Assembly: GCA_022710975.1 (NCBI GenBank)
Contig: JAKLGA010000009.1
Span: 181,547-245,546, forward strand
Reading direction: 5' to 3'
DNA length: 64,000 nucleotides
DNA from: Myxococcota bacterium
GTDB taxonomy: Bacteria; Myxococcota; B64-G9
Part shown: positions 1,270-62,062 of the stretch, one piece after another
How the letters are laid out: the number at the start of each line of letters is the position of its first letter
How positions within the stretch are numbered: position 1 is the first letter of the stretch
Translations under genes and position numbers: made by a program
Notes under the pieces: model-generated
What the model was told of the DNA's origin: nothing
Seen by the model: the letters and a program-made list of their open reading frames with translations, nothing else
Databases searched by the model: none

Positions 1270-1378
1270 GCCCGGCCCACCCCCCTGGCCGCCCTCCCCG
1301 GGGGAGGGTGGGCGCTCCGCCCCGTTTCTGCTAGAATCCTCTCGACTCTCCGGTGGACCCGGACCCTTGGAGGTGACC

Positions 1379-4522: not shown

Positions 4523-4550
4523 TCCGCGGCGCCTGGAGCGGGAGGAGAAC

Positions 4551-6833
4551 ATGCACACGGCTCACATTCGTCCCTGGCGCCCGATCGCGGCGGCCGCGCT
4601 GCTGCTCGGCTCGCTGGCCTGCGGCGGCACCCAGTGCGACTGCGTCCAGCCGCTCGGCGGGCCCGTCCCGGCCGAGGAGCAGGTCCTCGACGCGGTCCAG
4701 CTCCGCCTGACCCCGCAGGCCTTCGACTTCCTCGAACAGAACCTGCCCGGCCTGCTGGCGAGCATGCTGCCCGGCGGGCTCGCCTTCCCGGTGCCGCCCA
4801 TGCACCAGGAGTTCGACGCCTGGATCTTCTCCCTGTCGCTCGACATCTGCGAGGCCGGCTGCGAGCTGCAGGCGGACATCGCCGGCGCCACGCTCGCGCG
4901 GGTGGAGCCCGATCGGCTGCACCTGACCGCGCTCGCCAACCTGACGGGCCTGCTCACCCTGGGCGGCGACGTGGAGTGCAAGGTGCCCATCGCCATCCAG
5001 CAGAAGCCCGTGGAGGCGGACGTCATCCTGCGCGTCGATCCGCGCGACGGCCTGCTGTCCTTCGGGGTGCAGGGCCTGACCGTCGCCATCACCGACGAGG
5101 ACTACGAGCTCGAGTGCTACGGGATGCTGGGGGCGCTGGTCGAGTCCCTCAAGGGCTTCCTCACCCAGATGATGAACGAGCAGATCAGCGGCCAGCTCGA
5201 CAGCGCCCTCGGCGGCATGCTGGACCAGGCCACCTGCCTGGCCTGCGGCTTCTACACCGGCGGCTGCCCGGGCGGCTCGGCCTGCGACGGGGAGTACTGC
5301 CTGGACGGCGCGGACGTGTGCCTGACCAACCCGCTGGGGCTGGCGGGCAGCCTGGACGTCGGCGCGCTGCTGGCCTCGGTGGTGCCCGGGCTGTCGGCCG
5401 AGCTCGAGGTGTTCCTGGCCGCCGGCCAGCAGGCGGAGCCGGCCGTGGACCCGCTGGTGGTGGCCGACGGCCTGGAGCTGCGCATGATCGGCGCGTTCGA
5501 CGCCGAGCGGAACCGCTGCGTGCCCGAGCCCGACCCGGCCGAGCTGCCGCCGGTCGCGCCGGCGCCGCGGCTGCCCTTCGCCGCGGACAACCTGGTGCCG
5601 GGCAGCGCCGTGCCGTTCATGCTGGGTGTGGGGGTGTCGGACGCGTTCCTCGACCGGGCGCTCCTCAAGGCCTACCTGGGCGGGGCGCTGTGCCTGTCGC
5701 TCGACTCGGGCCTGTCCGACATGCTCTCCTCGGGCACGCTGGCGATGCTCATGGGCTCGCTGGACACCCTCACCCGCGGCCAGAACGCCCCGGTGCGCAT
5801 CGCGCTCCGGCCCCAGGGCGTGCCCGGCCTGATCGTGGGCCTGGGCACCTTCACCGTGGACAACCTCGGAAACAAGATCATCGACGATCCGCTGCTGACC
5901 ATCGAGCTGCCGGACGTGGCGCTCGACTTCTACGTGCGGGTGGACGAGCGCTGGGCGCGGGTGGTGACTCTCACCCAGGATCTCCGCCTGCTCCTGGGCA
6001 TGGACTTCCTGCCGGACAACCGGGTGCTGCCGGTGTTCGACGCGAACTCCATCGAGATCGGCGAGGTGGTGGCGTCGAACTACGAGCTCCTGGCCGAGGA
6101 CCCAGCCGCGCTCGAGCAGCTCCTGCCCACCCTGCTGGGGCTCGCGCTGCCCATGCTGACGGAGTCCCTGGGGGTGATCGACATCCCCGAGATCCAGGGC
6201 TTCCTGCTCGAGATCCTGGCGGTGCGAGGGGAGCTGGCGAAGCTCGACGGCTCGGCCGGCTTCGAGCACCTGGCGCTGTACGCCAACCTGGGCCTGGTCT
6301 CCGCACCCCCGCCCGCCCCGCGCGAGACCCGCGCCTGGGTGCGCGAGGTGCGCACCCCGGCCTGGAGCGCCATGTCCATCCACGCCCCGGGCGGGCCGGC
6401 CTACCCCGAGGTGGCGCTGGACGTCGGCGCGGACCGGGCCGGCCCGGCCGAGTACTCCTGGCGCCTGGACGGCGGGGGCTGGAGCGTGTTCCAGCCCGGG
6501 CCGCGCCTGGTGGTGAGGAGCCCGGTGCTGGCGCTGCGGGGCGAGCACCGCATCGAGGTGCGCGCGCGCACCGCGGGCGCCTACCGCTCGCTCGATCCCA
6601 GCCCCGCGCTCGTGCGGGTGGACATCGCGCCCCCGCGCGACCTGCCCGTGGCCGCGGACCGGCCAGCCGGGCCGTCGCTGGACCGGCTGGGCCAGCCCGG
6701 GGGCGAGCTGCGGGTGGGCGAGGACGCCGCCGCGCCCGGGGAGCCCCAGGCCGGCTGCGCGACCGGCCCGGGCTCTGGCCTGGCGCTCGGCCTGCTCGCC
6801 CTCGCGCTCCTCGGGCTGCGGCGCAGGGCCTGA
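4551..6833 (+). CDS. Secreted or lipoprotein with a C-terminal MYXO-CTERM sorting signal. Its middle domain is paralogous to the C-terminal domain of the upstream gene.
   Basis: GGGAGGAG RBS before the ATG at 4551. Signal peptide IAAAALLLGSLACGG. C-terminus GCATGPGSGLALGLLALALLGLRRRA matches the MYXO-CTERM pattern. It starts 28 nt after the upstream gene, so the two are a likely operon. Confidence 0.75.
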   Translation: MHTAHIRPWRPIAAAALLLGSLACGGTQCDCVQPLGGPVPAEEQVLDAVQLRLTPQAFDFLEQNLPGLLASMLPGGLAFPVPPMHQEFDAWIFSLSLDICEAGCELQADIAGATLARVEPDRLHLTALANLTGLLTLGGDVECKVPIAIQQKPVEADVILRVDPRDGLLSFGVQGLTVAITDEDYELECYGMLGALVESLKGFLTQMMNEQISGQLDSALGGMLDQATCLACGFYTGGCPGGSACDGEYCLDGADVCLTNPLGLAGSLDVGALLASVVPGLSAELEVFLAAGQQAEPAVDPLVVADGLELRMIGAFDAERNRCVPEPDPAELPPVAPAPRLPFAADNLVPGSAVPFMLGVGVSDAFLDRALLKAYLGGALCLSLDSGLSDMLSSGTLAMLMGSLDTLTRGQNAPVRIALRPQGVPGLIVGLGTFTVDNLGNKIIDDPLLTIELPDVALDFYVRVDERWARVVTLTQDLRLLLGMDFLPDNRVLPVFDANSIEIGEVVASNYELLAEDPAALEQLLPTLLGLALPMLTESLGVIDIPEIQGFLLEILAVRGELAKLDGSAGFEHLALYANLGLVSAPPPAPRETRAWVREVRTPAWSAMSIHAPGGPAYPEVALDVGADRAGPAEYSWRLDGGGWSVFQPGPRLVVRSPVLALRGEHRIEVRARTAGAYRSLDPSPALVRVDIAPPRDLPVAADRPAGPSLDRLGQPGGELRVGEDAAAPGEPQAGCATGPGSGLALGLLALALLGLRRRA

Positions 6834-25871: not shown

Positions 25872-26621
25872 ATGGCGTTTCTCGGGCGGTGCGGCATGGC
25901 CCGGCAGTTGTTCATCTCCCAGGATACCCTGGTGGCCTGGCAGGACCAGGACAAGGTGGCCTTCGACGGCCACGTGATGACGATCAAGGCCGACGGGCGG
26001 CGCTTCAACCTGCTCGAGGCCGTGCGCTTCATCCGCCTGGAGGGCGAGGGGCAGGACACGGCTGGCATGGTCGGCAAGGTCAAGACCGACGAGCAGATCG
26101 TGGCCGCGGGCGGGGAGCGGTACCGCGACTCGGTCATCCTGGGCGAGGCGGCCTACAAGGTCCAGGAGGGCTTCATCGGCGAGGTCTTCGTCCGCAGCGG
26201 GGCGCTGGACACCGGGCAGACCCCGATCGCCCCGATGACCACGCTCAGCGGCATGGCGGCCGTGCCAGCCGCGCCGGCGCCGCCAGCGGCCCCCGAACCG
26301 CCCGTGGACACCGGCTCGGCCCTGGAGGAGACCGTGCGCCAGGCGGCCGTGCGCCGGGCCGCGGCAGCCACGGCGCAGGCCTCCGACCAGCCTGGCAGGG
26401 CCGCGGTGCTGCGCATCCCCGTGCAGCGCCGGGACCTCTCCGCGGCCCGCACCCAGCCCTCCCTGCCCGTGGTGGCGGTGGACGGCCCGGCCGCGCCCGC
26501 GAGGGCGCCCGCGACGCCAGCGGCCACGGCCGCGGAGCCTGGCGCGAAGCCCACCGCGGGCAAGCCCGACGCGTCCTCGGACGAGGATCTGCTCACCAAG
26601 TTCCTGCTCGAGAACCTGTGA
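25872..26621 (+). CDS. Hypothetical protein: a roughly 110-aa N-terminal globular domain followed by a long Ala/Pro-rich disordered tail ending LLTKFLLENL
   Basis: GC3-biased codon usage over the first roughly 120 codons. Preceded by the only TTGACA hexamer in the region and an AT-rich TAATAAAGG stretch. No recognisable domain. An alternative start exists at 25896. Confidence 0.5.
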   Translation: MAFLGRCGMARQLFISQDTLVAWQDQDKVAFDGHVMTIKADGRRFNLLEAVRFIRLEGEGQDTAGMVGKVKTDEQIVAAGGERYRDSVILGEAAYKVQEGFIGEVFVRSGALDTGQTPIAPMTTLSGMAAVPAAPAPPAAPEPPVDTGSALEETVRQAAVRRAAAATAQASDQPGRAAVLRIPVQRRDLSAARTQPSLPVVAVDGPAAPARAPATPAATAAEPGAKPTAGKPDASSDEDLLTKFLLENL

Positions 26622-26622
26622 T

Positions 26623-27828
26623 TCAGTTGGAAGGATCCAGCTTGGACAGGTCCCCCGCGGGGACCGCGGGCGGCGGCGTGGCCGCGGGCGGGCCTGGCGG
26701 CGGAGAGGACCGCGGGCGCCGCCGTCCCCACAGGCCGGTCACCTTGGTCCCGTAGTGCCGCAGATCCATGCGCAGCAGCACGAAGATGGCGAGCACCAGC
26801 CCGAGGAAGACGCCCCAGACCAGGAACATGTTGTAGCCCATGGCCGCGTACACGTCGCCCGTGCCCACCCGCAGCGGCGCGCCGGCCTTGGCCAGGCCGT
26901 AGGTCTTGGCGATCTTCTCCACGAACACCAGGTGGATGACCGGCACACCGTTGCGGGACATGCGGGTGATGACGGAGTCCCGGATGCGCTCCGAGGTCGG
27001 CAGCTCCTTGTTCACGCCCGGCAGGAACATCTTCTTGATCATGGACGAGCCCACCGAGCCCGCCCCGCCGCCGACGTTCACGTAGGCCGCGATGGGCTGG
27101 CCGCCGGCCTCCTCGCGGTAGATGTTCATGCGCAGATCGAAGGACGAGCTCAGGTCGGGCGGGTCGATCAGCTCGACCCCGTTGCGCTTGATGGCCTCGC
27201 GCAGCATGCGCACGCCCTCGGCCGGCAGGCCCACCCCGCGGTCCTGCTCGCCGCCCAGGGAGGCGGCCACCGTGCGGTTGTGGATCACGCCGTTCTCGAA
27301 CAGCAGCCGCTCCATGTCGAGCCAGGTCAGCTCCGGATCGTTGGCGCCCCAGTTGGAGCCCGAGGTGGAGGTGATGATCACCGGCCGGAGTTTCAGCGTC
27401 TCGGCCGCCACCAGGGCGGCCAGGTTGAGCGAGGGGAAGGAGCCGCTGAAGGCCATCGCCACCACGTCGCCTTCCTTGAGCTTGGCGCGCTTGTACATCT
27501 GCACCAGGACCGCGGCGAAGTTGGGGTTGGCGGCGGTCTGCTTGGCGGCCAGGATGCCGGTGTTGGAGGTGATCGGGGTGAGGCCGGTGCCGATCATCCC
27601 GGTGGCCAGGGGGTCGTGCTCGGTGTCGATGCGGCCGAAGATGGAGATGCGCGCCCGCTTGATCACCTCGATGCCGCGGGCCATCAGCTTGGCCGCCTGC
27701 ACCTTCTCCTTGTAGTAGGGCTTGCGCGTCTTCTGCGGCAGGCCCTCCACCAGCATGTAGCCGATGATGGACAGCAGCGCCACGAGGGCCAGGACCGGAC
27801 GCGAGGCCTTGCCAGGCCGCCACATCAT
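26623..27828 (-). CDS. Putative poly-gamma-glutamate system membrane protein, of the third-component family found in place of PgsA/CapA. Two TM anchors flank a periplasmic domain.
   Basis: Start ATG overlaps the pgsC stop as ATGA; an alternative ATG lies 6 nt upstream. N-terminal TM (VLALVALLSIIGYMLV) and C-terminal TM (MFLVWGVFLGLVLAIFVLL). No similarity to B. subtilis PgsA. Identity as a TIGR04332-like protein is inferred from memory plus gene context. Confidence 0.5.
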   Translation of the reverse strand: MMWRPGKASRPVLALVALLSIIGYMLVEGLPQKTRKPYYKEKVQAAKLMARGIEVIKRARISIFGRIDTEHDPLATGMIGTGLTPITSNTGILAAKQTAANPNFAAVLVQMYKRAKLKEGDVVAMAFSGSFPSLNLAALVAAETLKLRPVIITSTSGSNWGANDPELTWLDMERLLFENGVIHNRTVAASLGGEQDRGVGLPAEGVRMLREAIKRNGVELIDPPDLSSSFDLRMNIYREEAGGQPIAAYVNVGGGAGSVGSSMIKKMFLPGVNKELPTSERIRDSVITRMSRNGVPVIHLVFVEKIAKTYGLAKAGAPLRVGTGDVYAAMGYNMFLVWGVFLGLVLAIFVLLRMDLRHYGTKVTGLWGRRRPRSSPPPGPPAATPPPAVPAGDLSKLDPSN

Positions 27829-28289
27829 AGCCATTCGTACATCTCCCCGCCGTAGATCATGATGAGCAGCAGCTTGACCAGCACGCCCGAGGTCAGCAGG
27901 GTGGCGGAGGTCTCCACCACGCCCTGGCGGTCGAGCCACATCGCCACCAGGCCCGGGATGATGTAGCCGATGGCGTGGAGCTGGTAGGTCTGCCCGCCGA
28001 GGTCGATCTGCATGAAACCGCGGAACAGCATACCCAGCATGAAGCCCACCAGGATGATCACCACCGTGCGACGCCGGCCGAAGAGGATCATGAACGTGCT
28101 CATGACCCGCACGATCAGGTAGGCCACCACCCCGAGCACGAGCGTCATCAGCACGGCCACCGGGTTGGTCAGGTTGAGCGCGATGTAGCCTGGCACCACC
28201 ATGCCGCCCGCGGCCAGCCCGAGGGTCTCCGAGAAGACCAGGCTGACCACCAGGCCGATGCCGATGGCGTTGGGGATGAGGTCTTCCAA
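27825..28289 (-). CDS. pgsC: Poly-gamma-glutamate synthesis protein PgsC/CapC
   Basis: TTG start preceded by an AAGGAG RBS 9 nt upstream. Aligns along its length with B. subtilis PgsC (DLIPNAIGIGLVVSLVF...GGMVVPGYIALNL...FMILFGRRR...GYIIPGLVAMW). Confidence 0.75.
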   Translation of the reverse strand: MEDLIPNAIGIGLVVSLVFSETLGLAAGGMVVPGYIALNLTNPVAVLMTLVLGVVAYLIVRVMSTFMILFGRRRTVVIILVGFMLGMLFRGFMQIDLGGQTYQLHAIGYIIPGLVAMWLDRQGVVETSATLLTSGVLVKLLLIMIYGGEMYEWL

Positions 28290-28305
28290 GGGGTTCTGCT
28301 CCTTG

Positions 28306-29505
28306 TCAGGCTGCCTGCTCGGGCGTGGCCGCCCGATTCTCGAAGTACTCGATGATCTCGTTGCCGCCCGCACCGATGTTGCCCATGCCGAACACCAGAC
28401 CGCGCTTGCCGATCTGCGCGATGGCGCGCTCGAACACCCGCGCCGGGTCGGCCCGCTCCATGTCGATCAGCCGCTCCGGGTCCAGGCCGGCCTTGAGCGC
28501 CGCCTCGAGCGCCAGGCGGGTGCCGGTGCCGGTGAACAGCGAGCAGTCGACCCCCTGCATGCGGTGAATCATCTCGCCGAGCTGCAGGGAGCGGTGGGGC
28601 CTGTCGGCGCGGCAGTTGAGCATGACCACCCGGCGCAGCTCGCCCGGGAAGAGCTTCAGGATGCGGCCCTGCCAGATGGCGAGCGTGGAGTCCGGATCGT
28701 TGGCCGCCAGGGCGTTGATGAAGCTGATGTCCTTGGCGTAGAAGGCCAGGCGGATGATGCGCAGCACGCCGATGTCCGGCGCGCAGCGCCACATGCCCTC
28801 CAGGGCCACCCGCGGATCGATGCCGAACTGCTTGCAGGTGCACAGGGCCACCGCCACGTTGTCCGGGTGCTCGACGTAGGAGAAGCCGCGCAGCATCTCC
28901 TCGGTGACCCCCTCGGACTCCGGGGTGGCGACGTGCAGGCGCGAACCCTCCCGCTCGCACACCTGGCGCATGATGCCGGTCAGCTCCGGATCGGTCTCGC
29001 CGGTGACCAGGTCGGCCTTGCGCGGCACCGTGCCGCACAGCGCCAGCGTCAGGTGCCGGACGGTCGGCCCCATCACGTCCAGGTGGTCCGCCCGGGCGTT
29101 GGTGATCACCCCCACCCGGGAGCGCAGCATGGTGTGCTCGCACAGGTGCTGGTAGCGCGGGTTCAGCGCCATGCACTCGGCCACCAGGGCCTGGGCCTCC
29201 CGGCGGGCGGTGACCGCCAGGGCGCGCACCTGCTCGATGATGTTGGCGCGCCCCTGGCGTTGGATGCTGTACTCGCTGCCGTCCTCGAGGATCATGCGCG
29301 GCCGGGAGCCGGTCGTCTTGGCGCAGGTGCGGATGCCACCCGCGCGCATGCCCGCGGCGATCAGCCGGGTGACCGAGGACTTGCCCCGGGTGCCGTTGAC
29401 GTGCACCCGGATGGGCACCCTGGCCTGCGAGCGCCGGAGCCCGAGGTACTCCCAGCTGAAGGCGAGCACCAGCAGCCCGAGGATGACCACCAGCACGATG
29501 AGCAC
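28306..29505 (-). CDS. pgsB: Poly-gamma-glutamate synthase PgsB/CapB (Mur-ligase-like amide ligase)
   Basis: N-terminal TM helix then RVHVNGTRGKSSVTRL (P-loop), AECMALNP, VITNARADHLDVMGP, FINALAANDPDST and MLNCRADR. These are close matches to conserved blocks of B. subtilis PgsB. Confidence 0.85.
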   Translation of the reverse strand: MLIVLVVILGLLVLAFSWEYLGLRRSQARVPIRVHVNGTRGKSSVTRLIAAGMRAGGIRTCAKTTGSRPRMILEDGSEYSIQRQGRANIIEQVRALAVTARREAQALVAECMALNPRYQHLCEHTMLRSRVGVITNARADHLDVMGPTVRHLTLALCGTVPRKADLVTGETDPELTGIMRQVCEREGSRLHVATPESEGVTEEMLRGFSYVEHPDNVAVALCTCKQFGIDPRVALEGMWRCAPDIGVLRIIRLAFYAKDISFINALAANDPDSTLAIWQGRILKLFPGELRRVVMLNCRADRPHRSLQLGEMIHRMQGVDCSLFTGTGTRLALEAALKAGLDPERLIDMERADPARVFERAIAQIGKRGLVFGMGNIGAGGNEIIEYFENRAATPEQAA

Positions 29506-29536
29506 GTCGGCCTCCAGGCAAGCGCGGAGAATGGGG

Positions 29537-29977
29537 CTAGGCGAAGGCCAGCAAGCCCTCGCCGGTCTGGACCCGCTTGCCCACCGCGGTCAGGATGCTC
29601 TCGATCCGGCCCGCGCGGCTGGCGCGGATCTCGTTCTCCATCTTCATCGCCTCGAGCAACAGCAGCACCTCGCCCGGCTTCACCTCCTGGCCGACCTTCA
29701 CCAGGATGCGGGTGACCACGCCGGGCATCACCGCGGTGAGCACGTTCGAGCCCGCCGCCGCCGGGGCGGACGCGGGCGCCGCCGCCGGCCGGGGCGCGGG
29801 GGCCTGTGGCCGCGGCCCGGACGGAGCGGCCTGCGGCTGGACCGCCGGCGACTCCCGCCGGATGGCCACCTCGAGCCGCTCGCCGTCCACGTCCACCACG
29901 GCGGCCTCGGCGCCCAGGCTCTCGACGCGCACCCGGAAGGTCTTACCCCGCACGGTCAACTCGAGCTCGTTCGCCAT
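29537..29977 (-). CDS. Biotin/lipoyl-attachment domain protein (BCCP-like, with biotinylation motif EAMKM)
   Basis: GGAGGAG RBS before the ATG. C-terminal MPGVVTRILVKVGQEVKPGEVLLLLEAMKMENEIRASRAGRI is a typical biotinyl domain. A Pro/Ala linker precedes it. The gene is 31 nt upstream of pgsB, with no carboxylase or transcarboxylase partner in the window. Confidence 0.7.
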   Translation of the reverse strand: MANELELTVRGKTFRVRVESLGAEAAVVDVDGERLEVAIRRESPAVQPQAAPSGPRPQAPAPRPAAAPASAPAAAGSNVLTAVMPGVVTRILVKVGQEVKPGEVLLLLEAMKMENEIRASRAGRIESILTAVGKRVQTGEGLLAFA

Positions 29978-30054
29978 GCCTTCTCGCTCCTCCGTCCGCG
30001 ACCCAGGGCCGGATGGTACCTGTTTGGGGGCGGAAATCAACACCTGCCGAGGGC

Positions 30055-30897
30055 TCAGGGCCGCTCGCCGCCAGGCTTCTGCTTGGCCTTCTTGAGCATC
30101 TCGTCGAGGGGCAGCCTGGTGACGCCGTCCGCGGGCGGCTCGGGGGGCGGCGCGGGCTCCGCGGGCTCCACGCCCGGGTCGTCCCCGCCGAACAGCCAGG
30201 CCCGCAGGGCGCGGTCTCCCACGCGCAGCGCCAGCGGGTCCCGGAGCCCAACCAGCCCGGGCAGGGCCTGCAGCAGGGGCTGCTCGCCCGCGGCCTGGAG
30301 GACCTTCGCCACCGCCGCGTGACTCGCCAGGTACAGGGCCGGGTCGGGGATGTTCCCCTGGGCGCGCCAGCGCAGCTCGATGGCCTGCAGGCTGGCCTCG
30401 TCCGGGGGCGGGGCCGCGCGCACGCGCTCGCCGCCGAAGTGCTCGGCCAGCCCTTCGTTGAGCCAGGTGGGGCAGTGGCCCCGGGACACCTGGAACACCA
30501 GGTAGTGGGTCAGCTCGTGGGCCAGCATGCCCGGCAGCAGGCGCTGCTTCCACATGCGGCGCACGATCTTGGTGGCCTGGGTGACGATGCCGTGGCGCGA
30601 GGAGTACACCGCGCCGGTCGACAGCGTGCGCCCGGTGCGCTCGTGGAAGGCGCGCGGATCGTCCGCGATCAGGATCTGCACCATCTCCTGGCCATCGAGC
30701 GCGAGCCCGAAGCGCGGCGCCAGGTCGGCCAGCTTCTGGCAGGCGATCTCGGCCAGCTTGGGCCCGACCTCGCCGTGCGGATCGACGGGATCCTCGAGCA
30801 GCACCGCCACCTCGGGGCAGGCGCTCAGGCGGAAGGGCTCGGCCCCGACCGCGCCGGAGGCGAGCAGGACGGCCAGGGCGAGGCCGACGCGCTGCAT
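30055..30897 (-). CDS. Secreted zinc metallopeptidase, Peptidase_MA_2-like (HExxH ... NEGLAE)
   Basis: Signal peptide MQRVGLALAVLLASGAVGA. HELTH motif followed 18 aa later by NEGLAEHF, the gluzincin third-ligand arrangement. The gene starts 25 nt after the MVP stop. Confidence 0.6.
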   Translation of the reverse strand: MQRVGLALAVLLASGAVGAEPFRLSACPEVAVLLEDPVDPHGEVGPKLAEIACQKLADLAPRFGLALDGQEMVQILIADDPRAFHERTGRTLSTGAVYSSRHGIVTQATKIVRRMWKQRLLPGMLAHELTHYLVFQVSRGHCPTWLNEGLAEHFGGERVRAAPPPDEASLQAIELRWRAQGNIPDPALYLASHAAVAKVLQAAGEQPLLQALPGLVGLRDPLALRVGDRALRAWLFGGDDPGVEPAEPAPPPEPPADGVTRLPLDEMLKKAKQKPGGERP

Positions 30898-30922
30898 GGC
30901 GGGTGCGGGCACGGGCGCCGGC

Positions 30923-39700: not shown

Positions 39701-42700
39701 TCAGCTGCAGTAGCCGTACTCCCAGGTGTTGTAGTATTCCCAGCAGCCGTACACGTACGAGTAGCACTCCGTGCCGCAGACGTACTGGCCGGAGCTCGTG
39801 TCGCACTCGCAGATCTGGTCGTAGTCGCAGTCCGCCAGGCCAGCGGGGCACTGGCACACCCCGCCCACGCAGATCTGGTTGTAGGAGCACAGCGGGCTGC
39901 CGGTGCAGCCGCCCACGGAGCAGTGGTCGCTTATCGTGCAGGCGTCGCCGTCGTCGCAGGGGGAGGCGTTGGGGGGGTTGGCGCAGCCGCCGCCGGCCGG
40001 CCAGCACTCGTCGTCGGTGCAGGGGTTGCCGTCGTCGCAGCTCAGCTTCGAGCCGCTCTGGCAGCAGGCCTCGCCCGCGGCGCCGTTGCAGGTGTCGCCC
40101 GCGGTGCAGGCGTCGCCGTCGGAGCAGGCGGCGGTGCTGGGCACGTAGCTGCAGCCCGAGCCGTCGTTGCAGTAGTCGTCCGAGCAGGGGTTGCCGTCGT
40201 CGCAGCTCGCGAGCAGGGCGCCGCCGCTGCAGGAGGTGCCCTGGCAGGTCTGCGCGTACCAGGCCAGACCGCTGCAGTAGGTCGAGCCGCACGGGAGGCC
40301 GTCGCCCGCCGCCGGGTAGCTGCAGCCGGCGCCCCCGTCGCAGCTGTCCGCGGTGCAGGGGTTGGGGTCGCCGCAGACCTGGATGATCTCGCTCCCGCCG
40401 CACTGCCCGCTCTGGCAGGTCTGGCGGCGCCACTCCAGCCCGCTGCAGGAGCGCGCTCCGCACTCCATCCCGTCGCTCACCGGGGGATGGACACAGCCTG
40501 AGCCCGGGTCGCACACGTCGCTGGTGCAGGGGTTCCAGTCCTCGCAGTCCGGCGCCACGCCGGCGACGCAGCTCGGGCTCTCGCACCGCTCCGGCCCGTT
40601 GCAGGCGTTGCCGTCGTCGCATTGCCAGTCCGAGGTGCAGGACTGGCAGACGGTGTCCGCACCATCGACGGCCCCGTCGCAGTCGTTGTCCAGCCCGTCC
40701 GCGCAGGTGGCCGAGCCCAGCGGTCCCTCGGTCGCTCCCGGGTGGATGGTGTTGTTCTGGTCATCGCAGTCCTGGCCGCAGGGCGGCGGGGCGTGGCCGT
40801 CGGAGTCGGCGTCGATGGCCTGGCCGGCGCAGGTCCCGCCGGCGCAGGCGTCGCCGCTGGTGCAGGCGTCGAGGTCGTCGCACGGCGCCGTGTTGTGGCT
40901 GTGCGTGCAGCCGTTCGCGTCGCAGCCGTCGTCGGTGCAGGGATCGCCGTCGTCGCAGGCGCTCGCATCCGGGCTGAAGACGCAGCCCGCGCCCTGGTCG
41001 CAGGTGTCGAGGGTGCAGGGGTCGCCGTCGTCGCAGGTCCGCGGCGTGCCCTGGCAGCTCGCGCCGACGCAGGTGTCGCCCTCGGTGCAGGCGTTGCCGT
41101 CGTCGCAGCCCCCGCCGGTGGAGACGTGGGAGCAGCCCTGCTGGGGATCGCAGAGATCGTCGGTGCAGGGGTTGCCGTCGTCGCAGCGCTCCAGGCACGA
41201 GCGGCAGGCCTGCGGGGAGCCCAGCGCGGTTTCGCAGCCCGGGCTGGCGTCGCAGTCGCCCTAGCCGGGCTCGCAGGCGCAGGCGCTGAGCTGGCAGGTC
41301 GCGCGCGAGCCGCAGACCCGCTCGCAGGAGCCGCAGTGCTGCGGGTCGTTGCTCAGATCGACGCAGGCGGTGCCGCAGCAGAAGCTGGCCTGGGTCCCGG
41401 GGCAGTCCGGCCCCGTGCCGCCGCAGGCGCAGGTCGCTCCGGTGCAGAGCTCGCCGCTGTCGCAGGTGGTGCCGTTGCAGGCCTGGCCGTTGCAGAGGCC
41501 GCCCTCGCAGCCGTAGGGGCAGTCCTCGGGGACCTCCGTGTACTGGCAGACGCCGTCCGCGCACTGGCCGGGGACCTCGAAGCGGACGCGCGCGTCGCCG
41601 CGGCACTCGGCCGGCGGCGGCTGGTCGCAGCCCTGGAGCTGTCCGTGGCACTCCTCGGCCTGGCAGACATCGCCCTGGGTGCAGGCGTCCCCGTCCGTGC
41701 AATCCTGGCCCCCGGGCGCCCAGGCGGGCTGCAGCGCGGCCGGATCGAACAGGCAGCGGAAGGTGCCCCAGGCGCACTGACGCGCCTGGCACTGGAGGGC
41801 CTCGGTGCAGATTTCACGCGGGCAGCACAGGCCATCCTCGCAGCGCTGCCAGTCCGCGCACTCCACACCCACGCAGAGCCTGGGCGCGCACACCCCCCCG
41901 GCGCACACCTCGCCCGCGCCGCAGGGCGTCGCCCCGCAGGCCAGCGGGTAGCAGGCGCCGGCCGCGCACTCCTCGCCCGAGGCGCAGGTCACCTGGGCGC
42001 ACGAACGCGGGACGCAGGCGCCCTCGAAACAGACCTCGAGGCCTTCGACGCAGTCCAGCTCCGGGCAGTCCGCCTCCAGGCACCAGCCGTTGGCGCATTC
42101 GAGGGCGCCGCAGTCGACCTGGCCGCAGCTGCGCTGGACGCAGGCGCCGTCCACGCAGATCTCGTCGTGGCCGCTGCAGAGCTCCTCGGTGCACTCGCTC
42201 GGGTAGCAGCGACCGCCGCTGCAGACCTGGCCGGTCGGGCAGACCACCTCAGCGCACGAGCGATCGCGGCACTCGTCCTCGATGCACACCTCGCCGTAGC
42301 CGGCGCACAGCCTGGTGGGGCAGTCCCTGGGGTAGCACCTGCCCGCGGCGCAGACCTGGCCGGTCGGGCACTGGACCGCGAGGCAGGAGGCCGGGGTGCA
42401 ATCCTCCTGCACGCACACCTCGCCCAGCCCGGGGCAGTTGCGCCAGTCGCAGGCCGACGGGTAGCAGTGCCCGTTGGCGCAGCCCTCGCCCGGGGGGCAC
42501 TCCACCCACAGGCAGGCCACCTCCTGGCAGGTCTCTCCGAGGCAGACGTGGCCGGGCGGGCAGCTCCGATCCGTGCAGCTCGTGGGCAGGCACTCGCCCC
42601 GGACCACGATCCCGTCCGGGCAGCTCCCGATCTCGCCGGAGTCGCAGCCGGCCGGACCCAGCACCAGGGACAGGCACGCGACCGCGAGCATGACGCGCAG

Positions 42701-42828: not shown

Positions 42829-45800
42829 TCAGTAGTAGCAGGTGATGTAGCCGCTGCAGCCCGGGTAGTAGTACTCGTCGTAGCAGCAGTAGTAGTAGTT
42901 CGTGTCGCACTCGCAGATCTGGTCGTAGTCGCAGTCCTCGAGGCCGGCCGGGCACTGGCACACCCCGCCCACGCAGATCTGGTTGTAGGAGCACAGCGGG
43001 CTGCCGGTGCAGTTGCCCCCGGAGCAGTAGTCGCCGGTGGTGCAAGGGTCGCCGTCGTCGCACGGACCGGGCTTGGCGGGGTAGGCGCAGCCGGTGGCCG
43101 GGTAGCAGTCGTCGTAGGTGCAGATGTTCCCGTCGTTGCAGGGCGGCGTCACGTTGGGGTCGAACTGCGGGTGGCAGCAGGCCTCGCCCTGGGCGCCATT
43201 GCAGTAGTCGTTGGCCCCGGTGCAGGCGTCGCCGTCGGAACAGGGGTTGGTGTTGGGCACGTAGCTGCAGCCCGAGCCGCCGTTGCAGTAGTCGGTGGAG
43301 CACACGTTGGCGTCGTTGCAGTTCTGGATGAGCGCGCTCGACGAGCAGGCGCCCGACGTGCAGGTCTGGCGGCGCCACTCCAGGCCGCTGCAGTAGCGCG
43401 AGCCGCACTCGGTGCCGTTGGCGACGTTCGCGTTCGTGCAGCCGCTGGCGGCCGCGCAGGAGTCGTTGGTGCACTGCTGGCTGTCGTTACAGTTCTGGAT
43501 GAGCGCGCTCGACGAGCAGGCGCCCGACGTGCAGGTCTGGCGGCGCCACTCCAGGGCGTTGCAGTAGCGCGAGCCGCACTCGGTGCCGTTGGCGACGTTC
43601 GCGTTCGTGCAGCCGCTGGCGGCCGCGCAGGAGTCGCTGGTGCACTCGATGCCGTCGTTGCAGTTCTGCAGCCCCATGTCGCCGGAGCAGGTGCCGCTCT
43701 GGCAGGTGTGGGCGTACCACGCCAGGCCGATGCAGTAGCGCGCGCCGCACTCGGTACCGTTGGCGACGTTCGCGTTCGTGCAGCCGCTGGCGGCCGCGCA
43801 GGAGTCGTTGGTGCACTGCTGGCCGTCGTTGCAGTTCTGCACCAGGGCGTTGCCGCTGCAGGCGCCGCTCACGCAGGACTGCATGCGCCACTCCAGGCCG
43901 TTGCAGTAGCGCGAGCCGCACTCGGTGCCGTTGGAGGCGTTGGGGTTGGAGCAGCCGCTGGCGGCGGCGCACGAGTCGGTGGTGCACTGGTTGGCGTCGT
44001 TGCAGTTCTGCTGCAGCGCGCTCGACGAGCAGGCGCCGGACAGGCAGGTCTGGCGGCGCCACTCGAGGCCGTTGCAGAAGCGCGCGCCGCACTCGATGCC
44101 GTTGGCCACCGCGACGTTGGAACAGCCGCTGGCCGCGTTGCAGGTGTCGCTGGTGCACTCCTGGCCGTCGTTGCAGTTCTGCTGCAGCGCGGAGCCCGAG
44201 CAGGAGCCGGACTGGCAGGTCTGGCGGCGCCACTCGAGCGAGCTGCAGAAACGCGCGCCGCACTCGATGCCGTTGGCCACCGCGACGTTGGAGCAGCCGC
44301 TGGCCGCGTTGCAGGTGTCGCTGGTGCACTCCTGGCCGTCGTTGCAGTTCTGCTGCAGCGCGGAGCCCGAGCAGGAGCCGGACTGGCAGGTGTGGCGGCG
44401 CCACTCGAGGGAGCTGCAGTAGCGCGCGCCGCACTCGATGCCGTTGGCCACCGCGACGTTGGTGCAGCCGCTGGCGGCGTTGCAGGAGTCGCTGGTGCAG
44501 TCCTCGATGTCGTTGCAGTTCTGTTGGAGCGCGTTGCCCGTGCAGGCGCCGGACTGGCAGGTCTGCCGGCGCCACTCCAGGCCGTTGCAGTAACGCGCGC
44601 CGCACTCGGTGCCGTTGGCGACCGCCGAGTTGGTGCAGCCGCTGGCGGCCGCGCAGGCGTCGCTGGTGCACGCCTGGCCGTCGTTGCAGTCCTGGGCGAC
44701 GGCGGTGCCCGAGCAGGTGCCCGACTGGCAGGTCTGCATGCGCCACTCCAGGCCGTTGCAGGAGCGCGAGCCGCACTCGGTGCCGTTGGGGAAGCTCGGG
44801 TGGCTGCAGCCCGTGGCGGCCGAGCAGGCGTCGTTGGTGCACTGGTTGGCGTCCGCGCAGTTCTCGAGCAGGCTGTTGCCGGTGCACTGACCCGCCTGGC
44901 AGGTCGGCACCCGCCACTCGAGCGCGTTGCATACCCGCGCGCCGCACTCGGTGCCGTTGGCCAGGTTCACGTGCTGGCAGCCCAGGGCCTGATCGCAGGA
45001 GTCCGTGGTGCAAGGGTTGCCGTCGTCGCAGTCGAGCGCTGTGCCCGAGGTGCAGTTGGGCGGGTTGCAGCCCTCGACGCCGTTGCAGGCGTTGCCGTCG
45101 TCGCACTGCTCGGGCAGGGTGCAGCTCTGGCAGGTCGAGTCCGCGCCGTCGGTGGTGCCGTCGCAGTCGTTGTCCAGGCCGTCCGAGCAGACCTGCGCGC
45201 CGAGCGGGCCCTCTGGCATGCCGGGGTTCACGTTCGGGTTGTCGTCCAGGCAGTCGCCGCCGCAGGGCGGCGGCTGGTGGTCGTCGCCGTCGGCGTCGAT
45301 GAGGGTGCCCGCGCAGGCGCCGCCCGCGCAGGTGTCCCCCGCGGTGCAGGCGTCGCCGTCGTTGCAGGGGGCGGTGTTGTTGGCGTGGGTGCAGCCGCTG
45401 GCCGAATTGCAGCCGTCCGTGGTGCAGGGGTTGCCGTCGTCGCAGTTCCTGGGCGCGCCGCTGCAGGCGGCGCCGGAGCACGCGTCGTTGATGGTGCACT
45501 CGTCGGCGTCGTCGCAGGCGTCGGCGTTCGGGTTGTAGGTGCAGCCCGTGGCCGGGTCGCAGCCGTCGTCGGTGCAGTCGTTGCCGTCCGTGCAGGTCCG
45601 GGGCGCCCCGGCCTGGCACGCGCCGCCGGAGCAGGCGTCGCCCTGGGTGCACTCGTTGCTGTCGCTGCACGGACCCGTGTTGTTCGCGTGGGTGCACTCG
45701 CCGGTGCCCGGCTCGCAGCCGTCGTCGGTGCACGGGTTGCCGTCGTCGCAGCTCGAGCCGCCGGTGAACACGCACACGCCGCCCTGGCAGTGGTCGCCCG

Positions 45801-47589
45801 TGGTGCAGCCGTCGTTGTCGCTGCAGGCGGCCGCGTCGTCGTTCACGTGCTGGCACTGGCCGCTGGCCGGGTTGCAGTCGTCCTGGGTGCAGGCGTTGAG
45901 ATCGTTGCAGTCCTTGGGAACTCCCTGGCAGGTGCCGCCCGAGCACGTGTCGCTGTCGGTGCAGGCGCTGGCGTCGTCGCAGGCCCCGGTGTTGGGGGCG
46001 TGCTGGCAGCCCAGCTGCGCGTCGCAGCTGTCGTCGGTGCAGGGGTTGTTGTCCTCGCAGCTCTCCTGGCAATCGCGGCAGAAGGTCAGGCTGCCGAGCG
46101 TGGTCTCGCAGCCCGGGTCGAGGGTGCAGTCGCCGAAGCCGGGCTGGCACCCGCAGATCTGGCCAGCGCAGCTCCCGTTCGGGCCGCACAGGTTGTCGCA
46201 GCCGCCGCAGTTCTGGCTGTCCTGGGTCAGGTCAACGCAGACCGCGCCGCAGCAGAAGCTGGAGGTGTCGCCGGCGCAGTCCGGGCCGGTGCCGCCGCAG
46301 CGGCACTCCGTCCCCACGCACTGCTCGTTGGGAGAGCACTGGATCCCGTTGCACATCGCGCCGATGCACTGCCCGTCGGTGCAACCCTCGGGGCAGTCCT
46401 CGACCACCTCGGCGTACTGGCAGCTCCCGTCCACGCACGTCCCCGGGGAGCGGAAGCTCACGCGCTGGTCGCCCCGGCACTCGGGCTGCGGCGGCTGGTT
46501 GCAGGCCAGCGGCGTCCCCCGGCACTCATCCTGGGCGCACACGTCTCCCTGGGTGCAGCCGTCGCTGTCGGTGCAGTCCTCCCCCTCGGTCGCCCACACG
46601 GTCTGCTGCGTGGCCGGGTCGTACTGGCAGCGGAAGTTCCCCCAGCCGCAGGCGCTCGTGCTGCACTGCAACCCCGGGGTGCAGGTCTCAGGTGGGCAGC
46701 AGGCGCCGGCCTCGCATCGCTGCCAGGTGGCGCAGTCCACCCCCACGCACAGGCGCAGCTCGCAGGCTCCGCCGGCGCAGACCTCGCCCGACGGGCAGGG
46801 GGTGTCTCCGCAGGTGAGCGGGTAGCAGGCACCAGCCGCGCACGCCTCGTCGGCGCCGCAGGTCACGTGGGCGCACGAGCGGGGGACACACGTCCCCTCG
46901 AAGCAGATCTCCAGCCCGTCCAGGCAGTCCTGGCCGGACTCGGTACAGTCCGCCGGGAAGCACCAGCCGTTGGCGCACTGCAGGTCGCCGCAGTCGACGT
47001 TGGCGCAGGTGCGCTCGGAGCACACGCCGTCGACGCACACCTCGTTGTAGCCGTGGCAGTTCTCCAGGCCGCACTCGGTCGGGTAGCAGCGCCCGCCGGA
47101 GCAGGTCTGCCCGGCGGGGCAGGTCACCCCGGCGCAGGAGCGTTCCTGGCACTCGTCCTCGATGCACACCTCGCCGTAGCCGGCGCACACCTTGGTGGGG
47201 CAGTCCTTGGGGTAGCATCGGCCCGCGGCGCAGACCTGGCCGGCCGGGCACTGGACCGCGATGCAGGAGGCCGGGGTGCACTCCTCCTCCACGCACACCT
47301 CGCCCAGGCCGGGGCAGTTGCGCCAGTTGCAGGCCGAGGGGTAGCAGACCCCATTGGCGCAGCCCTCTCCCGGGGGACACTCCACCCACAGGCAGGCCAC
47401 TTCCTGGCAGATCCCGCCCAGGCAGACCGAGCCTGGCGGGCAGGTCCGATCCTCGCACGTCGTGGGCAGGCACTGCCCGTTGACCACCACGCCGTCAGGG
47501 CACTGGGACGAGATGGTGCCGGGATCGCAGCTGCCCAGCCCGAGGCACGGCGCGAGGAACATGAGGTAGCGAAGGCGGGACTGGCTCAT
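42829..47589 (-). CDS. Giant cysteine-rich repeat lipoprotein (1586 aa): a Cys-rich N-terminal domain, TIGR02232-type DGNxCT repeats, about ten 56-aa tandem repeats, and a Tyr-rich C-terminus
   Basis: GAGGAG RBS before the ATG. Signal MFLAPCLGLGSC. Repeat unit NGTECGSRYCNGLEWRRQTCQSGACSGNALQQNCNDGQQCTNDSCAAASGCTNANVA. C-terminus CECDTNYYYCCYDEYYYPGCSGYITCYY. Confidence 0.8.
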   Translation of the reverse strand: MSQSRLRYLMFLAPCLGLGSCDPGTISSQCPDGVVVNGQCLPTTCEDRTCPPGSVCLGGICQEVACLWVECPPGEGCANGVCYPSACNWRNCPGLGEVCVEEECTPASCIAVQCPAGQVCAAGRCYPKDCPTKVCAGYGEVCIEDECQERSCAGVTCPAGQTCSGGRCYPTECGLENCHGYNEVCVDGVCSERTCANVDCGDLQCANGWCFPADCTESGQDCLDGLEICFEGTCVPRSCAHVTCGADEACAAGACYPLTCGDTPCPSGEVCAGGACELRLCVGVDCATWQRCEAGACCPPETCTPGLQCSTSACGWGNFRCQYDPATQQTVWATEGEDCTDSDGCTQGDVCAQDECRGTPLACNQPPQPECRGDQRVSFRSPGTCVDGSCQYAEVVEDCPEGCTDGQCIGAMCNGIQCSPNEQCVGTECRCGGTGPDCAGDTSSFCCGAVCVDLTQDSQNCGGCDNLCGPNGSCAGQICGCQPGFGDCTLDPGCETTLGSLTFCRDCQESCEDNNPCTDDSCDAQLGCQHAPNTGACDDASACTDSDTCSGGTCQGVPKDCNDLNACTQDDCNPASGQCQHVNDDAAACSDNDGCTTGDHCQGGVCVFTGGSSCDDGNPCTDDGCEPGTGECTHANNTGPCSDSNECTQGDACSGGACQAGAPRTCTDGNDCTDDGCDPATGCTYNPNADACDDADECTINDACSGAACSGAPRNCDDGNPCTTDGCNSASGCTHANNTAPCNDGDACTAGDTCAGGACAGTLIDADGDDHQPPPCGGDCLDDNPNVNPGMPEGPLGAQVCSDGLDNDCDGTTDGADSTCQSCTLPEQCDDGNACNGVEGCNPPNCTSGTALDCDDGNPCTTDSCDQALGCQHVNLANGTECGARVCNALEWRVPTCQAGQCTGNSLLENCADANQCTNDACSAATGCSHPSFPNGTECGSRSCNGLEWRMQTCQSGTCSGTAVAQDCNDGQACTSDACAAASGCTNSAVANGTECGARYCNGLEWRRQTCQSGACTGNALQQNCNDIEDCTSDSCNAASGCTNVAVANGIECGARYCSSLEWRRHTCQSGSCSGSALQQNCNDGQECTSDTCNAASGCSNVAVANGIECGARFCSSLEWRRQTCQSGSCSGSALQQNCNDGQECTSDTCNAASGCSNVAVANGIECGARFCNGLEWRRQTCLSGACSSSALQQNCNDANQCTTDSCAAASGCSNPNASNGTECGSRYCNGLEWRMQSCVSGACSGNALVQNCNDGQQCTNDSCAAASGCTNANVANGTECGARYCIGLAWYAHTCQSGTCSGDMGLQNCNDGIECTSDSCAAASGCTNANVANGTECGSRYCNALEWRRQTCTSGACSSSALIQNCNDSQQCTNDSCAAASGCTNANVANGTECGSRYCSGLEWRRQTCTSGACSSSALIQNCNDANVCSTDYCNGGSGCSYVPNTNPCSDGDACTGANDYCNGAQGEACCHPQFDPNVTPPCNDGNICTYDDCYPATGCAYPAKPGPCDDGDPCTTGDYCSGGNCTGSPLCSYNQICVGGVCQCPAGLEDCDYDQICECDTNYYYCCYDEYYYPGCSGYITCYY
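43250..44950. repeat. Tandem array of about ten 168-bp near-identical repeats inside the CDS 42829..47589
   Basis: Blocks such as GCACTCGGTGCCGTTGGCGACGTTCGCGTTCGTGCAGCCGCTGGCGGCCGCGCAGGAGTCGTTGGTGCACTGCTGGC recur with few substitutions. Each encodes a 56-aa Cys-rich module. Confidence 0.8.
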
Positions 47590-47757
47590 GTCCGGTCTCC
47601 TCTCGGCATACCGATCTGCTGGGGAGATTCTAACCTGTTTACGAGCATTTGAACAGCGCGGCCGGGCAGCTCGGCCGGGGAGCGCGCGCGCCGCCTTCGC
47701 CCTTGAACCAGCCTGGGGCTCGGGCTATCCTCAGAGGCCGATTCCCTGGAGGTCTGC

Positions 47758-52038: not shown

Positions 52039-55000
52039 TCAGCGCGCCCTGCGCCGGAGCACCAGCGCCAGGGCCAGCCCCAGGCCGAGCAGGCCGGCCT
52101 CCAGGGGCGAGCTCGAGGCTCCGCACACGCAGCCGCCGCCGCTCACGTGTGTCAGGTCCGGATCGCTGGCGCCGCCGTCGCCCCCGTCCTGTCCGGGCTG
52201 GCACACCCCGGCCTGGCATGTCCCGTCCGGACAGGCCGTCCCCTCCGGGAGCGCTGCGTGCCGGCAGGCGCCGTCGGCCGCTTCGCAGCCGTCCTCGGTG
52301 CACGGGTTGCCGTCGTCGCAGGCGAGCGGGGTCCCGGCGCACACGCCGGCCAGGCAGGCGTCGGCCGAGGTGCAGCCGTCGCCGTCGTCGCAGGGGGTGG
52401 CGTCGGGCCGGTCCACCAGGGAGCAGGCGCCCGTCGCCGGGTCGCAGGCCGCCTGGCGGCAGTCCGTGTCGGCGGTGGGATCGCACACCACCACGGTCGC
52501 GGGATCCACCACGCAGGCGGGGCTCTGGCAGACCAGGGTGCCGTTGCACAGGTCCGCGTCCTCGAAGGGCGCGCAGTCCGCGTCCGCGCTGCACTGGCAG
52601 GTGTTGGCTCCGGGCTGGCAGGCGCCGGCCGCGCAGGTGTCGCCCCCGGTGCAGGGGTTGCCGTCGTCGCAGGGGGCGCTGTTCGGGGAGAAGGCGCAGC
52701 CCGCGGCGGGCTCGCAGCCGTCGTCGGTGCAGGGGTTGGCGTCGTCGCAGACGAGCGGGGCACCCACCTGGCAGCCGAGGAGCGGATCGCAGCTCTCCAC
52801 GCCGTTGCAGGTGTCGCCATCGTCGCAGGCGAGCGGGGTGCCGGTGCACACGCCGGCCAGGCAGGCGTCGGCCGAGGTGCAGCCGTCGCCGTCGTCGCAG
52901 GGGGTGGCGTCGGGCCGGTCCACCAGGGAGCAGGCGCCCGTCGCCGGGTCGCAGGCCGCCTGGCGGCAGTCCGTGTCGGCGGTGGGATCGCACACCACCA
53001 CGGTCGCGGGATCCACCACGCAGGCGGGGCTCTGGCAGACCAGGGTGCCGTTGCACAGGTCCGCGTCCTCGAAGGGCGCGCAGTCCGCGTCCGCGCTGCA
53101 CTGGCAGGTGTTGGCTCCGGGCTGGCAGGCGCCGGCCGCGCAGGTGTCGCCCCCGGTGCAGGGGTTGCCGTCGTCGCAGGGGGCGCTGTTCGGGGAGAAG
53201 GCGCAGCCCGCGGCGGGCTCGCAGCCGTCGTCGGTGCAGGGGTTGGCGTCGTCGCAGACGAGCGGGGTGCCCACCTGGCAGCCGAGGAGCGGGTCGCAGC
53301 TCTCGGCGCCGGTGCAGGCGTCGCCGTCGTCGCAGGCGAGCGGGGTGCCGGCCACGCAGCCCGAGGCCGGATCGCAGCCCTCGAGGCCGTCGCAGACGTC
53401 GCCGTCGTCGCAGATGAGCGGGGTGCCCGGGACGCAGCCCGAGGCCGGGTCGCAGCCCTCGAGGCCGTCGCAGGCGTCGCCGTCGTCGCAGACGAGCGGG
53501 GTGCCCGGCTGGCAGGCGCCGCCGGCGCACGCCTCGTCGCCGTTGCACGTGTCGCCGTCCGGGCAGGGGAGCGTGTTGGGCTCGAAGGCGCAGCCCGTGG
53601 CCGGGACGCAGGAGTCCGTGGTGCAGACGTTGCCGTCGTCGCAGGAGAGCGGCGTGCCGGCCTGGCAGCTCCCGGCGGCGCAGGTCTCGTCGCCGTTGCA
53701 GGCGTTGCCGTCGTCGCAGTCCAGGTCCTGCGCGCACACCGAGCACGAGGGCTGCTCCGCGTCCACGTTCCCGTCGCAGTCGTTGTCCAGGCCGTCGCTG
53801 CAGGTCGGATCGCCCAGGCCGCCCTCGAACATCCCGGGGTTGACGCTGACGTTGCCGTCGTCGCAGTCCACGCCGCCGCAGGCGAAGGGCGCGTAGCCGT
53901 CGTCGTCCGCGTCCAGCGGCGCGCCCTGGCAGGCGCCGAGCGCGCAGGTGTCGCCCTCGGAGCAGGGGTCGCCGTCGTCGCATGGATCGGCGTTGCCGGT
54001 GTAAGCGCAGCCCGTGGCCGGGGCGCACGAGTCCGTGGTGCAGGCGTTGCCGTCGTCGCAGGCGAGCGGCGTGCCCGGCTGGCAGCTCCCGCCGGCGCAG
54101 ACCTCGGCGCCGTTGCAGAGGTCGCCGTCCGCGCAGGAGAGGGTGTTGTCCACTAGCACGCAGCCCGTGAACGGGTCGCACGAGTCCGTGGTGCAGAGGT
54201 TGCCGTCGTCGCAGGCGAGCGGTGTGCCGGCCTGGCAGGTGCCGGCGGAGCAGGCCTCGTCCCCGTTGCAGAGATCGCCGTCCGCGCAGGAGAGGGTGTT
54301 GGGGGCATAGCTGCAGCCCGTGGCCGGGGCGCAGGAGTCCGTGGTGCAGGAGTTGCCGTCGTCGCAGACGAGCGGGGTGCCGGCCTGGCAGGTGCCGGCC
54401 GCGCAGGCCTCGCTGCCGTTGCACTGATCGCCGTCCGAGCAGGAGACCGTGTTGGGGACATTGCTGCAGCCCGTGGCCGGGGCGCAGGAGTCCGAGGTGC
54501 AGACGTTGCCGTCATTGCAGCTCAGCGGTGTGCCGGCCTGGCAGGTGCCGGCGGAGCAGGCCTCGTCCCCGTTGCAGAGATCGCCGTCCGCGCAGGAGAG
54601 GGTGTTGGGGGCATAGCTGCAGCCCGTGGCCGGGGCGCAGGAGTCCGTGGTGCAGGAGTTGCCGTCGTCGCAGACCAGCGGGGCGCCGGCCTGGCACGAG
54701 CCCGCGGAGCAGGCCTCGTTGCCGTTGCAGAGGTCGCCGTCCGAGCAGGGCAGCGCGTTGTTGGCGAAGGCGCAGCCTGTGGCCGGGACGCAGGAGTCGG
54801 TGGTGCAGACGTTGCCGTCGTTGCAGGTGAGCGGCGTGCCGGCCTGGCAGGTGCCGCCGGAGCAGACCTCGGCGCCATCGCAGAGGTCGCCGTCCGCGCA
54901 GGAGGCCGTGTTGGGGACGAAGCTGCAGCCCGTGGCCGGGACGCAGGAGTCCGAGGTGCAGACGTTGCCGTCGTTGCAGGTCAGGGGGGTGCCGGCCTGG

Positions 55001-60759: not shown

Positions 60760-60879
60760 GCAGAACCTCCGGCGCTCGAGGCATTCCACCCGACGACCCC
60801 CTGAGGCTAACCCATGGCGATCTTTGTCACCAGGGGGAAGGGTGTGCAGCGGTATCGGGCTGTGGTAGGTCTGGTGTCC

Positions 60880-62055: not shown

Positions 62056-62062
62056 AGCTCGG

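Follow-up and report, generated by a model that had tools for sequence, protein, structure and literature searches.

A PgsB-PgsC-TIGR04332 poly-gamma-glutamate synthetase locus beside a probably unrelated biotin carrier gene in an uncultured Myxococcota genome

INTRODUCTION

The closest well-described relatives of the locus treated here are the poly-gamma-glutamate (PGA) synthetases of Bacillus, PgsBCA(E) or CapBCA(E). In Bacillus subtilis, pgsBC alone still makes PGA and PgsA alters the D/L ratio (PMC6029982), so that PgsA-type subunits are accessory. In a second type of system, found in non-Bacillus bacteria, PgsB and PgsC are followed by a protein of the NCBIfam family TIGR04332, 'poly-gamma-glutamate system protein'. 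The RefSeq product name of Francisella tularensis capA (YP_169814.2) is identical to this family name (PMC5362203, Table 3), which suggests, by product name rather than by sequence comparison, that Francisella capBCA is of the TIGR04332 type and not of the true PgsA type; it appears to be the only genetically studied example of such a system. Here we describe a PgsB-PgsC-TIGR04332 locus preceded by a gene for a biotin carrier protein, at positions 26623–29977 of a 64-kb stretch of DNA from an uncultured Myxococcota bacterium (GenBank assembly GCA_022710975.1, contig JAKLGA010000009.1, positions 181,547–245,546; GC content about 70%), hereafter called the window.

Judged by its sequence, the locus carries the form of the poly-gamma-glutamate synthetase that is usual outside Bacillus. 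We read it as a self-contained pgs cassette lodged beside an unrelated backbone biotin carrier, with a probability of roughly 0.75 for this reading as a whole. It shares with Bacillus PgsBCA(E) the equivalog-level PgsB and PgsC, the B-then-C order and, following them, a membrane-anchored third subunit with a putatively extracytoplasmic domain. Unlike in Bacillus, there is no PgsA/CapA (PF09587) and no PgsE here, the third protein has a Rossmann-like alpha/beta fold and a second, C-terminal transmembrane helix, the host is a diderm, and the system is known here from its genes. Compared with the PgsB-PgsC-TIGR04332 systems of other non-Bacillus bacteria, the three families, their order and their tight spacing are the same, and only the setting differs, namely downstream of an orphan biotin carrier and beside an mre/rodA cluster. 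The locus adds one uncultured Myxococcota genome to hundreds with this already-named cassette, and the tempting idea that biotin and polyglutamate are linked in it is removed as unsupported.

RESULTS AND DISCUSSION

Gene content and spacing of the locus

Four minus-strand genes, read in the same direction and tightly spaced, occupy 26623–29977, and JGI called the same four genes on an identical metagenome contig, Ga0116154_10000048. They are listed below with the gene that bounds the cassette on its other side.

29977–29537, minus strand: biotinyl carrier, 146 aa; PF00364, 61.2 bits (cut-off 22.1)
29505–28306, minus strand: pgsB, 399 aa; TIGR04012, 409.8 bits (cut-off 222.7)
28289–27825, minus strand: pgsC, 154 aa in the JGI call; TIGR04011, 125.9 bits (cut-off 96.45); PF14102, 118.8 bits
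27825/27828–26623, minus strand: third gene, 400–401 aa; TIGR04332, 327.1 bits (cut-off 100)
25872–26621, plus strand: p249, 249 aa; convergent with the cassette, no Pfam or NCBIfam match; other edge of the cassette slot

All these scores lie far above the curated thresholds, so the match of the locus is not due to chance. The presence of pgsB and pgsC, claimed by the original prediction from the letters of the sequence, is borne out, both proteins exceeding the NCBIfam equivalog cut-offs. The match of PgsB to TIGR04012 spans profile positions 2–380 of 380 and is accompanied by a match to PF08245 (Mur_ligase_M), and the protein has a hydrophobic N-terminus and the P-loop NGTRGKSS. By homology, it would be a membrane-anchored amide ligase of the Mur ligase type and the catalytic subunit of the cassette. 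PgsC, which matches both the TIGR04011 equivalog and PF14102 (Caps_synth_CapC), would likewise be a small polytopic membrane subunit and the partner of PgsB.

The carrier stop codon is separated from the GTG start of pgsB by 31 nt, and a GGAGG ribosome-binding site lies 7 nt 5' of this GTG. The gap between pgsB and pgsC is 16 nt, and the pgsC stop overlaps the start of the third gene. Such spacing is compatible with a single transcript for all four genes. Neither terminator-like sites nor promoters were found in a scan of 26300–31200, a scan that is weak and uninformative at about 70% GC and with promoters that do not follow the sigma-70 consensus.

The third protein

The original prediction had noted the absence of pgsA and had guessed that the third gene belongs to the alternative 'poly-gamma-glutamate system protein' family. 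Both points held when the 401-aa protein was searched with profile models: it is a clear member of TIGR04332, aligned over profile positions 3–302 of 307, and gave no Pfam match and no match to PGA_cap (PF09587) or PgsA. No such PGA_cap/PgsA signal was found in any ORF scanned across the 64-kb window either.

An AlphaFold2 model built on 56 homologues (pLDDT 90, pTM 0.83) comprises a helix at residues 10–29, a long helix at 39–64, a Rossmann-like alpha/beta domain and a long C-terminal helix at 334–368. In this model the two terminal helices (10–29 and 334–368) flank the alpha/beta domain, in agreement with the predicted architecture of two transmembrane helices around a domain. Beyond the C-terminal helix lies a strongly basic tail; taken together with the model, this tail would therefore place the globular domain outside the cytoplasm, and we infer an extracytoplasmic topology from the model and the charge distribution. 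A fold search with the model returned generic Rossmann matches only, with no close solved neighbour. Many polar residues of the protein are invariant (D72, K96, N101, N103, S130, S158, E173, D196, R233, N251, S258 and K265). By analogy, the third protein probably stands in the place of PgsA as the membrane-anchored, extracytoplasmic partner of PgsBC, without being a PgsA homologue. A third subunit that is an exchangeable accessory would fit the finding that PgsBC suffices in B. subtilis.

Distribution of the trio

A homologue search yielded 1274 clusters at E ≤ 1e-5, many of which already carry the JGI or NCBI name 'poly-gamma-glutamate system protein', and when one genome was scanned for each species, relatives were confirmed in at least 546 species genomes. 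The locus counts given below refer to the best 80 of these at least 546 relatives. The 80 loci span Myxococcota, Planctomycetota, Verrucomicrobiota, Spirochaetales, Nitrospirales, Desulfobacteraceae and Victivallales. The trio is colinear on a single strand in 75 of them, with a median gap of 18 nt between the HSP ends of pgsC and the third gene. Among the five others, contig ends truncate two, one results from an overlap artefact, and two (L007 and L008) have no pgsB at that place. Both of the latter are Myxococcales metagenome-assembled genomes (MAGs) in which pgsC and the TIGR04332 gene (6453–8182 in L007, 6453–8128 in L008) stand without an adjoining pgsB, and the place expected for pgsB is taken by a 743-aa gene on the opposite strand that has no Pfam match.

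Regarding a recurrent fourth gene, such as an analogue of PgsA, PgsE, CapD or PgdS, clustering of all ORFs within 3.5 kb of the trio gave no family in more than 10 of the 80 loci outside the close clade of the window. The trio is thus a self-contained module, and one that is already recognised. For this reason the description of the locus as an atypical operon was overstated: PgsB-PgsC-TIGR04332 is the usual order in hundreds of non-Bacillus genomes and had been named as such in the sources. The further remark, that myxobacteria are not known to produce polyglutamate, describes a gap in the literature, where no paper among those searched mentions TIGR04332 or links pgsB/capB with Myxococcota, and not a surprise at the genome level.

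As a separate observation, in a Mariniblastus MAG (L036) an ORF at about position 340 on the plus strand lies upstream of the pgs trio (1638–4634). It contains what we take to be a gamma-glutamyltranspeptidase-like motif (…AEAMKMAYADRSQYLGDPDF…) and could be an analogue of CapD.

The biotin carrier protein

In the 146-aa carrier, a short N-terminal region, which is conserved, is joined through an Ala/Pro-rich linker to the biotinyl domain with LEAMKMEN at the C-terminus. This motif and the N-terminal region are invariant in 11 aligned orthologues at 43–76% overall identity, and LEAMKMEN is also found in 6 further orthologues. The prediction of a genuine biotinylation motif is thus well founded, given the PF00364 match and the conservation of the motif across orthologues. 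Sequence matches in the PDB reach 6e-15, the best being 2d5d (the Pyrococcus horikoshii methylmalonyl-CoA decarboxylase gamma / OadA biotinyl domain), 5ks8_C and 1dcz (the 1.3S transcarboxylase subunit). Residues 4–144 align with the C-terminal 145 residues of the two-subunit pyruvate carboxylase PycB (5ks8_C), the N-terminal 40 residues corresponding to the PycB region that precedes the biotinyl domain. The protein therefore resembles the known free-standing carriers and carrier domains (2d5d, 1dcz, MmdC/GcdC and the C-termini of OadA/PycB) in its biotinyl domain with EAMKM, its Ala/Pro-rich linker and its short N-terminal beta region. Unlike the known free-standing carriers, it falls below every equivalog cut-off (the best NCBIfam match, PRK05641, gave 106 bits with a cut-off of 199, and MmdC 78.5 bits with a cut-off of 200) and has no partner subunit nearby in about 17 loci.

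The absence of a nearby carboxylase partner, noted in the original prediction, was confirmed, since no biotin carboxylase or carboxyltransferase domain is found in any sizeable ORF of the window, and no carboxylase partner lies within 5–10 kb of the carrier in the about 17 orthologous loci. Taken alone, the lack of a partner in the window would also agree with a displaced accB whose accC lies just outside it. This explanation was rejected on the NCBIfam scores, because the carrier gave only 45 bits with the AccB equivalog TIGR00531 (cut-off 115.2) and lacks the features scored by that model, its best matches being PRK05641, MmdC, the OadA/PycB C-termini and the 1.3S subunit. In addition, the same lack of a carboxylase in the orthologous loci speaks against it, and the window edges are 26–34 kb off, so that any partner would not be immediately adjacent; we consider a displaced accB highly improbable. 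On these comparisons, the protein is classed as an orphan biotin carrier of the OadA/MmdC/1.3S type and not as AccB.

Carrier and cassette across related loci

The original prediction had raised the possibility of a biotin-dependent step associated with a PgsBC-type ligase. Comparative analysis of the adjacency of carrier and pgsB does not support such a step. The carrier lies 5' of pgsB in 7 of the 80 TIGR04332 loci, all of them in the one Myxococcota clade nearest the window (third-protein identity 60–71%), and a scan of the 80 loci for E[AS]MK[ML] revealed other biotinyl ORFs only at L077, where an unrelated 75-aa carrier is located 3.5 kb away on the other strand. The adjacency is thus limited to one clade, and the carrier does not co-occur with pgs loci across lineages. 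Within the clade, the gene order is carrier, pgsB, pgsC, third gene, p249 (convergent), trx, rodA, pbp2, mreD, mreC and mreB. Since trx and p249 are equally syntenic, adjacency alone says no more for the carrier than for thioredoxin.

In order to look at the loci from the carrier side, an orthologue profile (A3) was used in place of a single-sequence carrier search, which had been dominated by double-domain Bacteroidales proteins, and six contexts (L088–L093) were looked up with it. All six carriers are at the same site beside p249-trx-rodA. The pgs trio is present in L088, L091, L092 and L093 and absent in L089 and L090. The order in L089 is GGDEF, phosphonate-binding protein, carrier, p249-like, trx, rodA, pbp2, mreD, mreC, and that in L090 is CLC channel, carrier, p249-like, trx, rodA and on to mreB. 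A p249 homologue, which directly follows the third gene in the pgs-bearing relatives, directly follows the carrier in these two loci, with 9–14 nt between the carrier stop and the p249 stop. p249 is the strictly conserved convergent neighbour in every clade locus, with or without pgs; it has a conserved N-terminal half, then a low-complexity Ala/Pro region and a conserved LLxxFLLxNL end.

Where pgs is absent, the carrier is neither lost nor decayed. The carriers of L089 and L090 are full-length, with the N-terminal domain and LEAMKMENEIRS intact, and they are not more diverged from the window carrier than those of the other loci (48–50% identity in the pgs-less loci vs 43–47% in the others). 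In a neighbour-joining tree of RodA and PBP2 (518 ungapped columns), the pgs-less L089 is sister to the pgs-bearing L001 (80% identity) and nested among pgs-bearing lineages, and L090 groups with the pgs-bearing L088. These placements indicate repeated loss or gain of the cassette beside a carrier that remained in place, and the sister relationship of L089 and L001 shows that carrier and pgs are separable. The reverse case is L005, which has the pgs trio, p249 and trx and no carrier. When L001 and L089 were compared, no repeats or scars at the cassette edges were obvious by eye.

These data bear on whether the carrier could be a clade-specific functional accessory of the pgs operon, coupled to it by co-transcription, either through a biotin-dependent carboxylation or decarboxylation in the supply of glutamate or 2-oxoglutarate or through a link to glutamate fermentation of the glutaconyl-CoA type. 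The shared strand, the 31-nt gap and the lack of a detected terminator are what such an accessory would show, and the adjacency is held across loci that differ in GC content (53–72%), in third-protein identity (60–100%) and in the genes upstream of the carrier. However, the carrier is absent from 73 of the 80 TIGR04332 loci, intact and equally conserved carriers persist without pgs at the same site in L089 and L090, which are nested in the clade, and L005 carries the trio without the carrier. Neither the proteins of the operon nor any other sizeable ORF of the window has a biotin carboxylase or carboxyltransferase domain, and because no pgs protein has a domain acting on biotin, this explanation has no mechanistic basis. 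The equal synteny of trx and p249 further argues for synteny throughout the clade, rather than selection on the pair, as the cause of the adjacency. Hence, an accessory role seems to us unlikely. A variant, in which the carrier was recruited into the pgs transcript in this clade and couples a biotin-dependent reaction to the synthesis or turnover of a glutamate polymer, would have as candidate enzyme a glutaconyl-CoA or oxaloacetate-type decarboxylase, the pgs-losing lineages keeping the carrier for its older job. Decarboxylases of these types drive ion pumping or glutamate fermentation in other organisms. We regard such recruitment as very unlikely, somewhat more so than an accessory role in general.

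Instead, the proposed link between biotin and pgs is most likely an accident of position. Under the reading of a self-contained cassette, the carrier would be a backbone gene in this Myxococcota clade, with p249, trx, rodA, pbp2 and mreDCB as its neighbours, and would most likely serve a carboxyltransferase or decarboxylase whose gene lies elsewhere in the genome. The pgs trio would be a present-or-absent cassette in the slot between carrier and p249, and where present would probably be read through from the carrier promoter, amounting to transcriptional hitch-hiking and not to a shared pathway. The carrier is thus probably not a component of the cassette, though it is probably co-transcribed with it.

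Proposed function of the cassette and points against the reading

In the proposed mechanism, PgsB would act as a cytoplasm-facing, ATP-dependent amide ligase adding glutamate in gamma-amide linkage, with PgsC as its membrane partner, and the TIGR04332 protein would receive, pass on or release the growing chain, as PgsA does in Bacillus.

Several points weigh against the reading of an independent PGA cassette beside an unrelated carrier. Regarding the carrier, adjacency is the majority state in the clade, with pgs next door in about 13 of the 15 carrier loci examined, and the junction between carrier and pgsB persists despite variation in the genes upstream of the carrier. The pgs-less status of L089 and L090 covers 12 kb around the carrier. 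Co-expression of the carrier and the pgs genes is likely, as expected from the 31-nt gap and the missing terminator. A partner enzyme of the carrier was not found in the 64 kb of genome searched. Regarding the product, the role given here to the third protein is drawn from its operon position and topology only, and no TIGR04332-type system is known to have a chemically shown product. Moreover, Francisella requires capBCA for virulence, yet its known capsule does not depend on capB or capC (PMC4688374).

The points on the product are also those that would favour a cassette making or modifying something other than free or capsular PGA, for example short gamma-glutamyl chains on an envelope component, with the TIGR04332 protein as an extracytoplasmic enzyme and not an export partner. 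The many invariant polar residues of the third protein, its fold without a close solved neighbour and the position of the cassette next to the rodA-pbp2-mreBCD cell-wall elongation genes would suit such an enzyme. On the other hand, the models that PgsB and PgsC match at equivalog level derive from proven PGA synthetases, B. subtilis needs no more than pgsBC to make PGA (PMC6029982), and the mre/rodA neighbourhood is clade-specific, the neighbours in the other 70 loci being different. A product other than PGA is therefore conceivable but doubtful, though it is the strongest of the alternatives considered here. What the locus exposes is a more general gap, in that the cassette is widespread in diderm phyla, is not known to have a shown product, and has a third subunit whose fold, though modelled with confidence, is close to no solved structure.

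Other features of the window

Upstream of the carrier, a 280-aa protein at 30055–30897 (minus strand) has an HExxH motif (HELTHYLV) and a hydrophobic N-terminus. It is without a Pfam or NCBIfam match and is common only to L082 and L083 among the relatives. Two genes upstream of the carrier, 30923–33187 (minus strand) encodes a 718–754-aa protein resembling the Major Vault Protein, with its shoulder domain (PF11978, 106.7 bits) and a Vault_3 repeat; the gene is absent from the 81%-related L082 and from the other relatives.

Very large proteins with Dicty_CTDC cysteine-rich repeats are encoded at 52039–62145, 42829–47724 and 39701–41260 (all minus strand) and at 1235–4522 (plus strand). One ORF with these repeats is 3369 aa long and also contains a subtilase (Peptidase_S8) domain and a fervidolysin-like prodomain. 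At 43910–46825, plus-strand ORFs with equally high GC3 overlap a 1631-aa minus-strand ORF, and Pfam support was obtained for the minus-strand ORF only.

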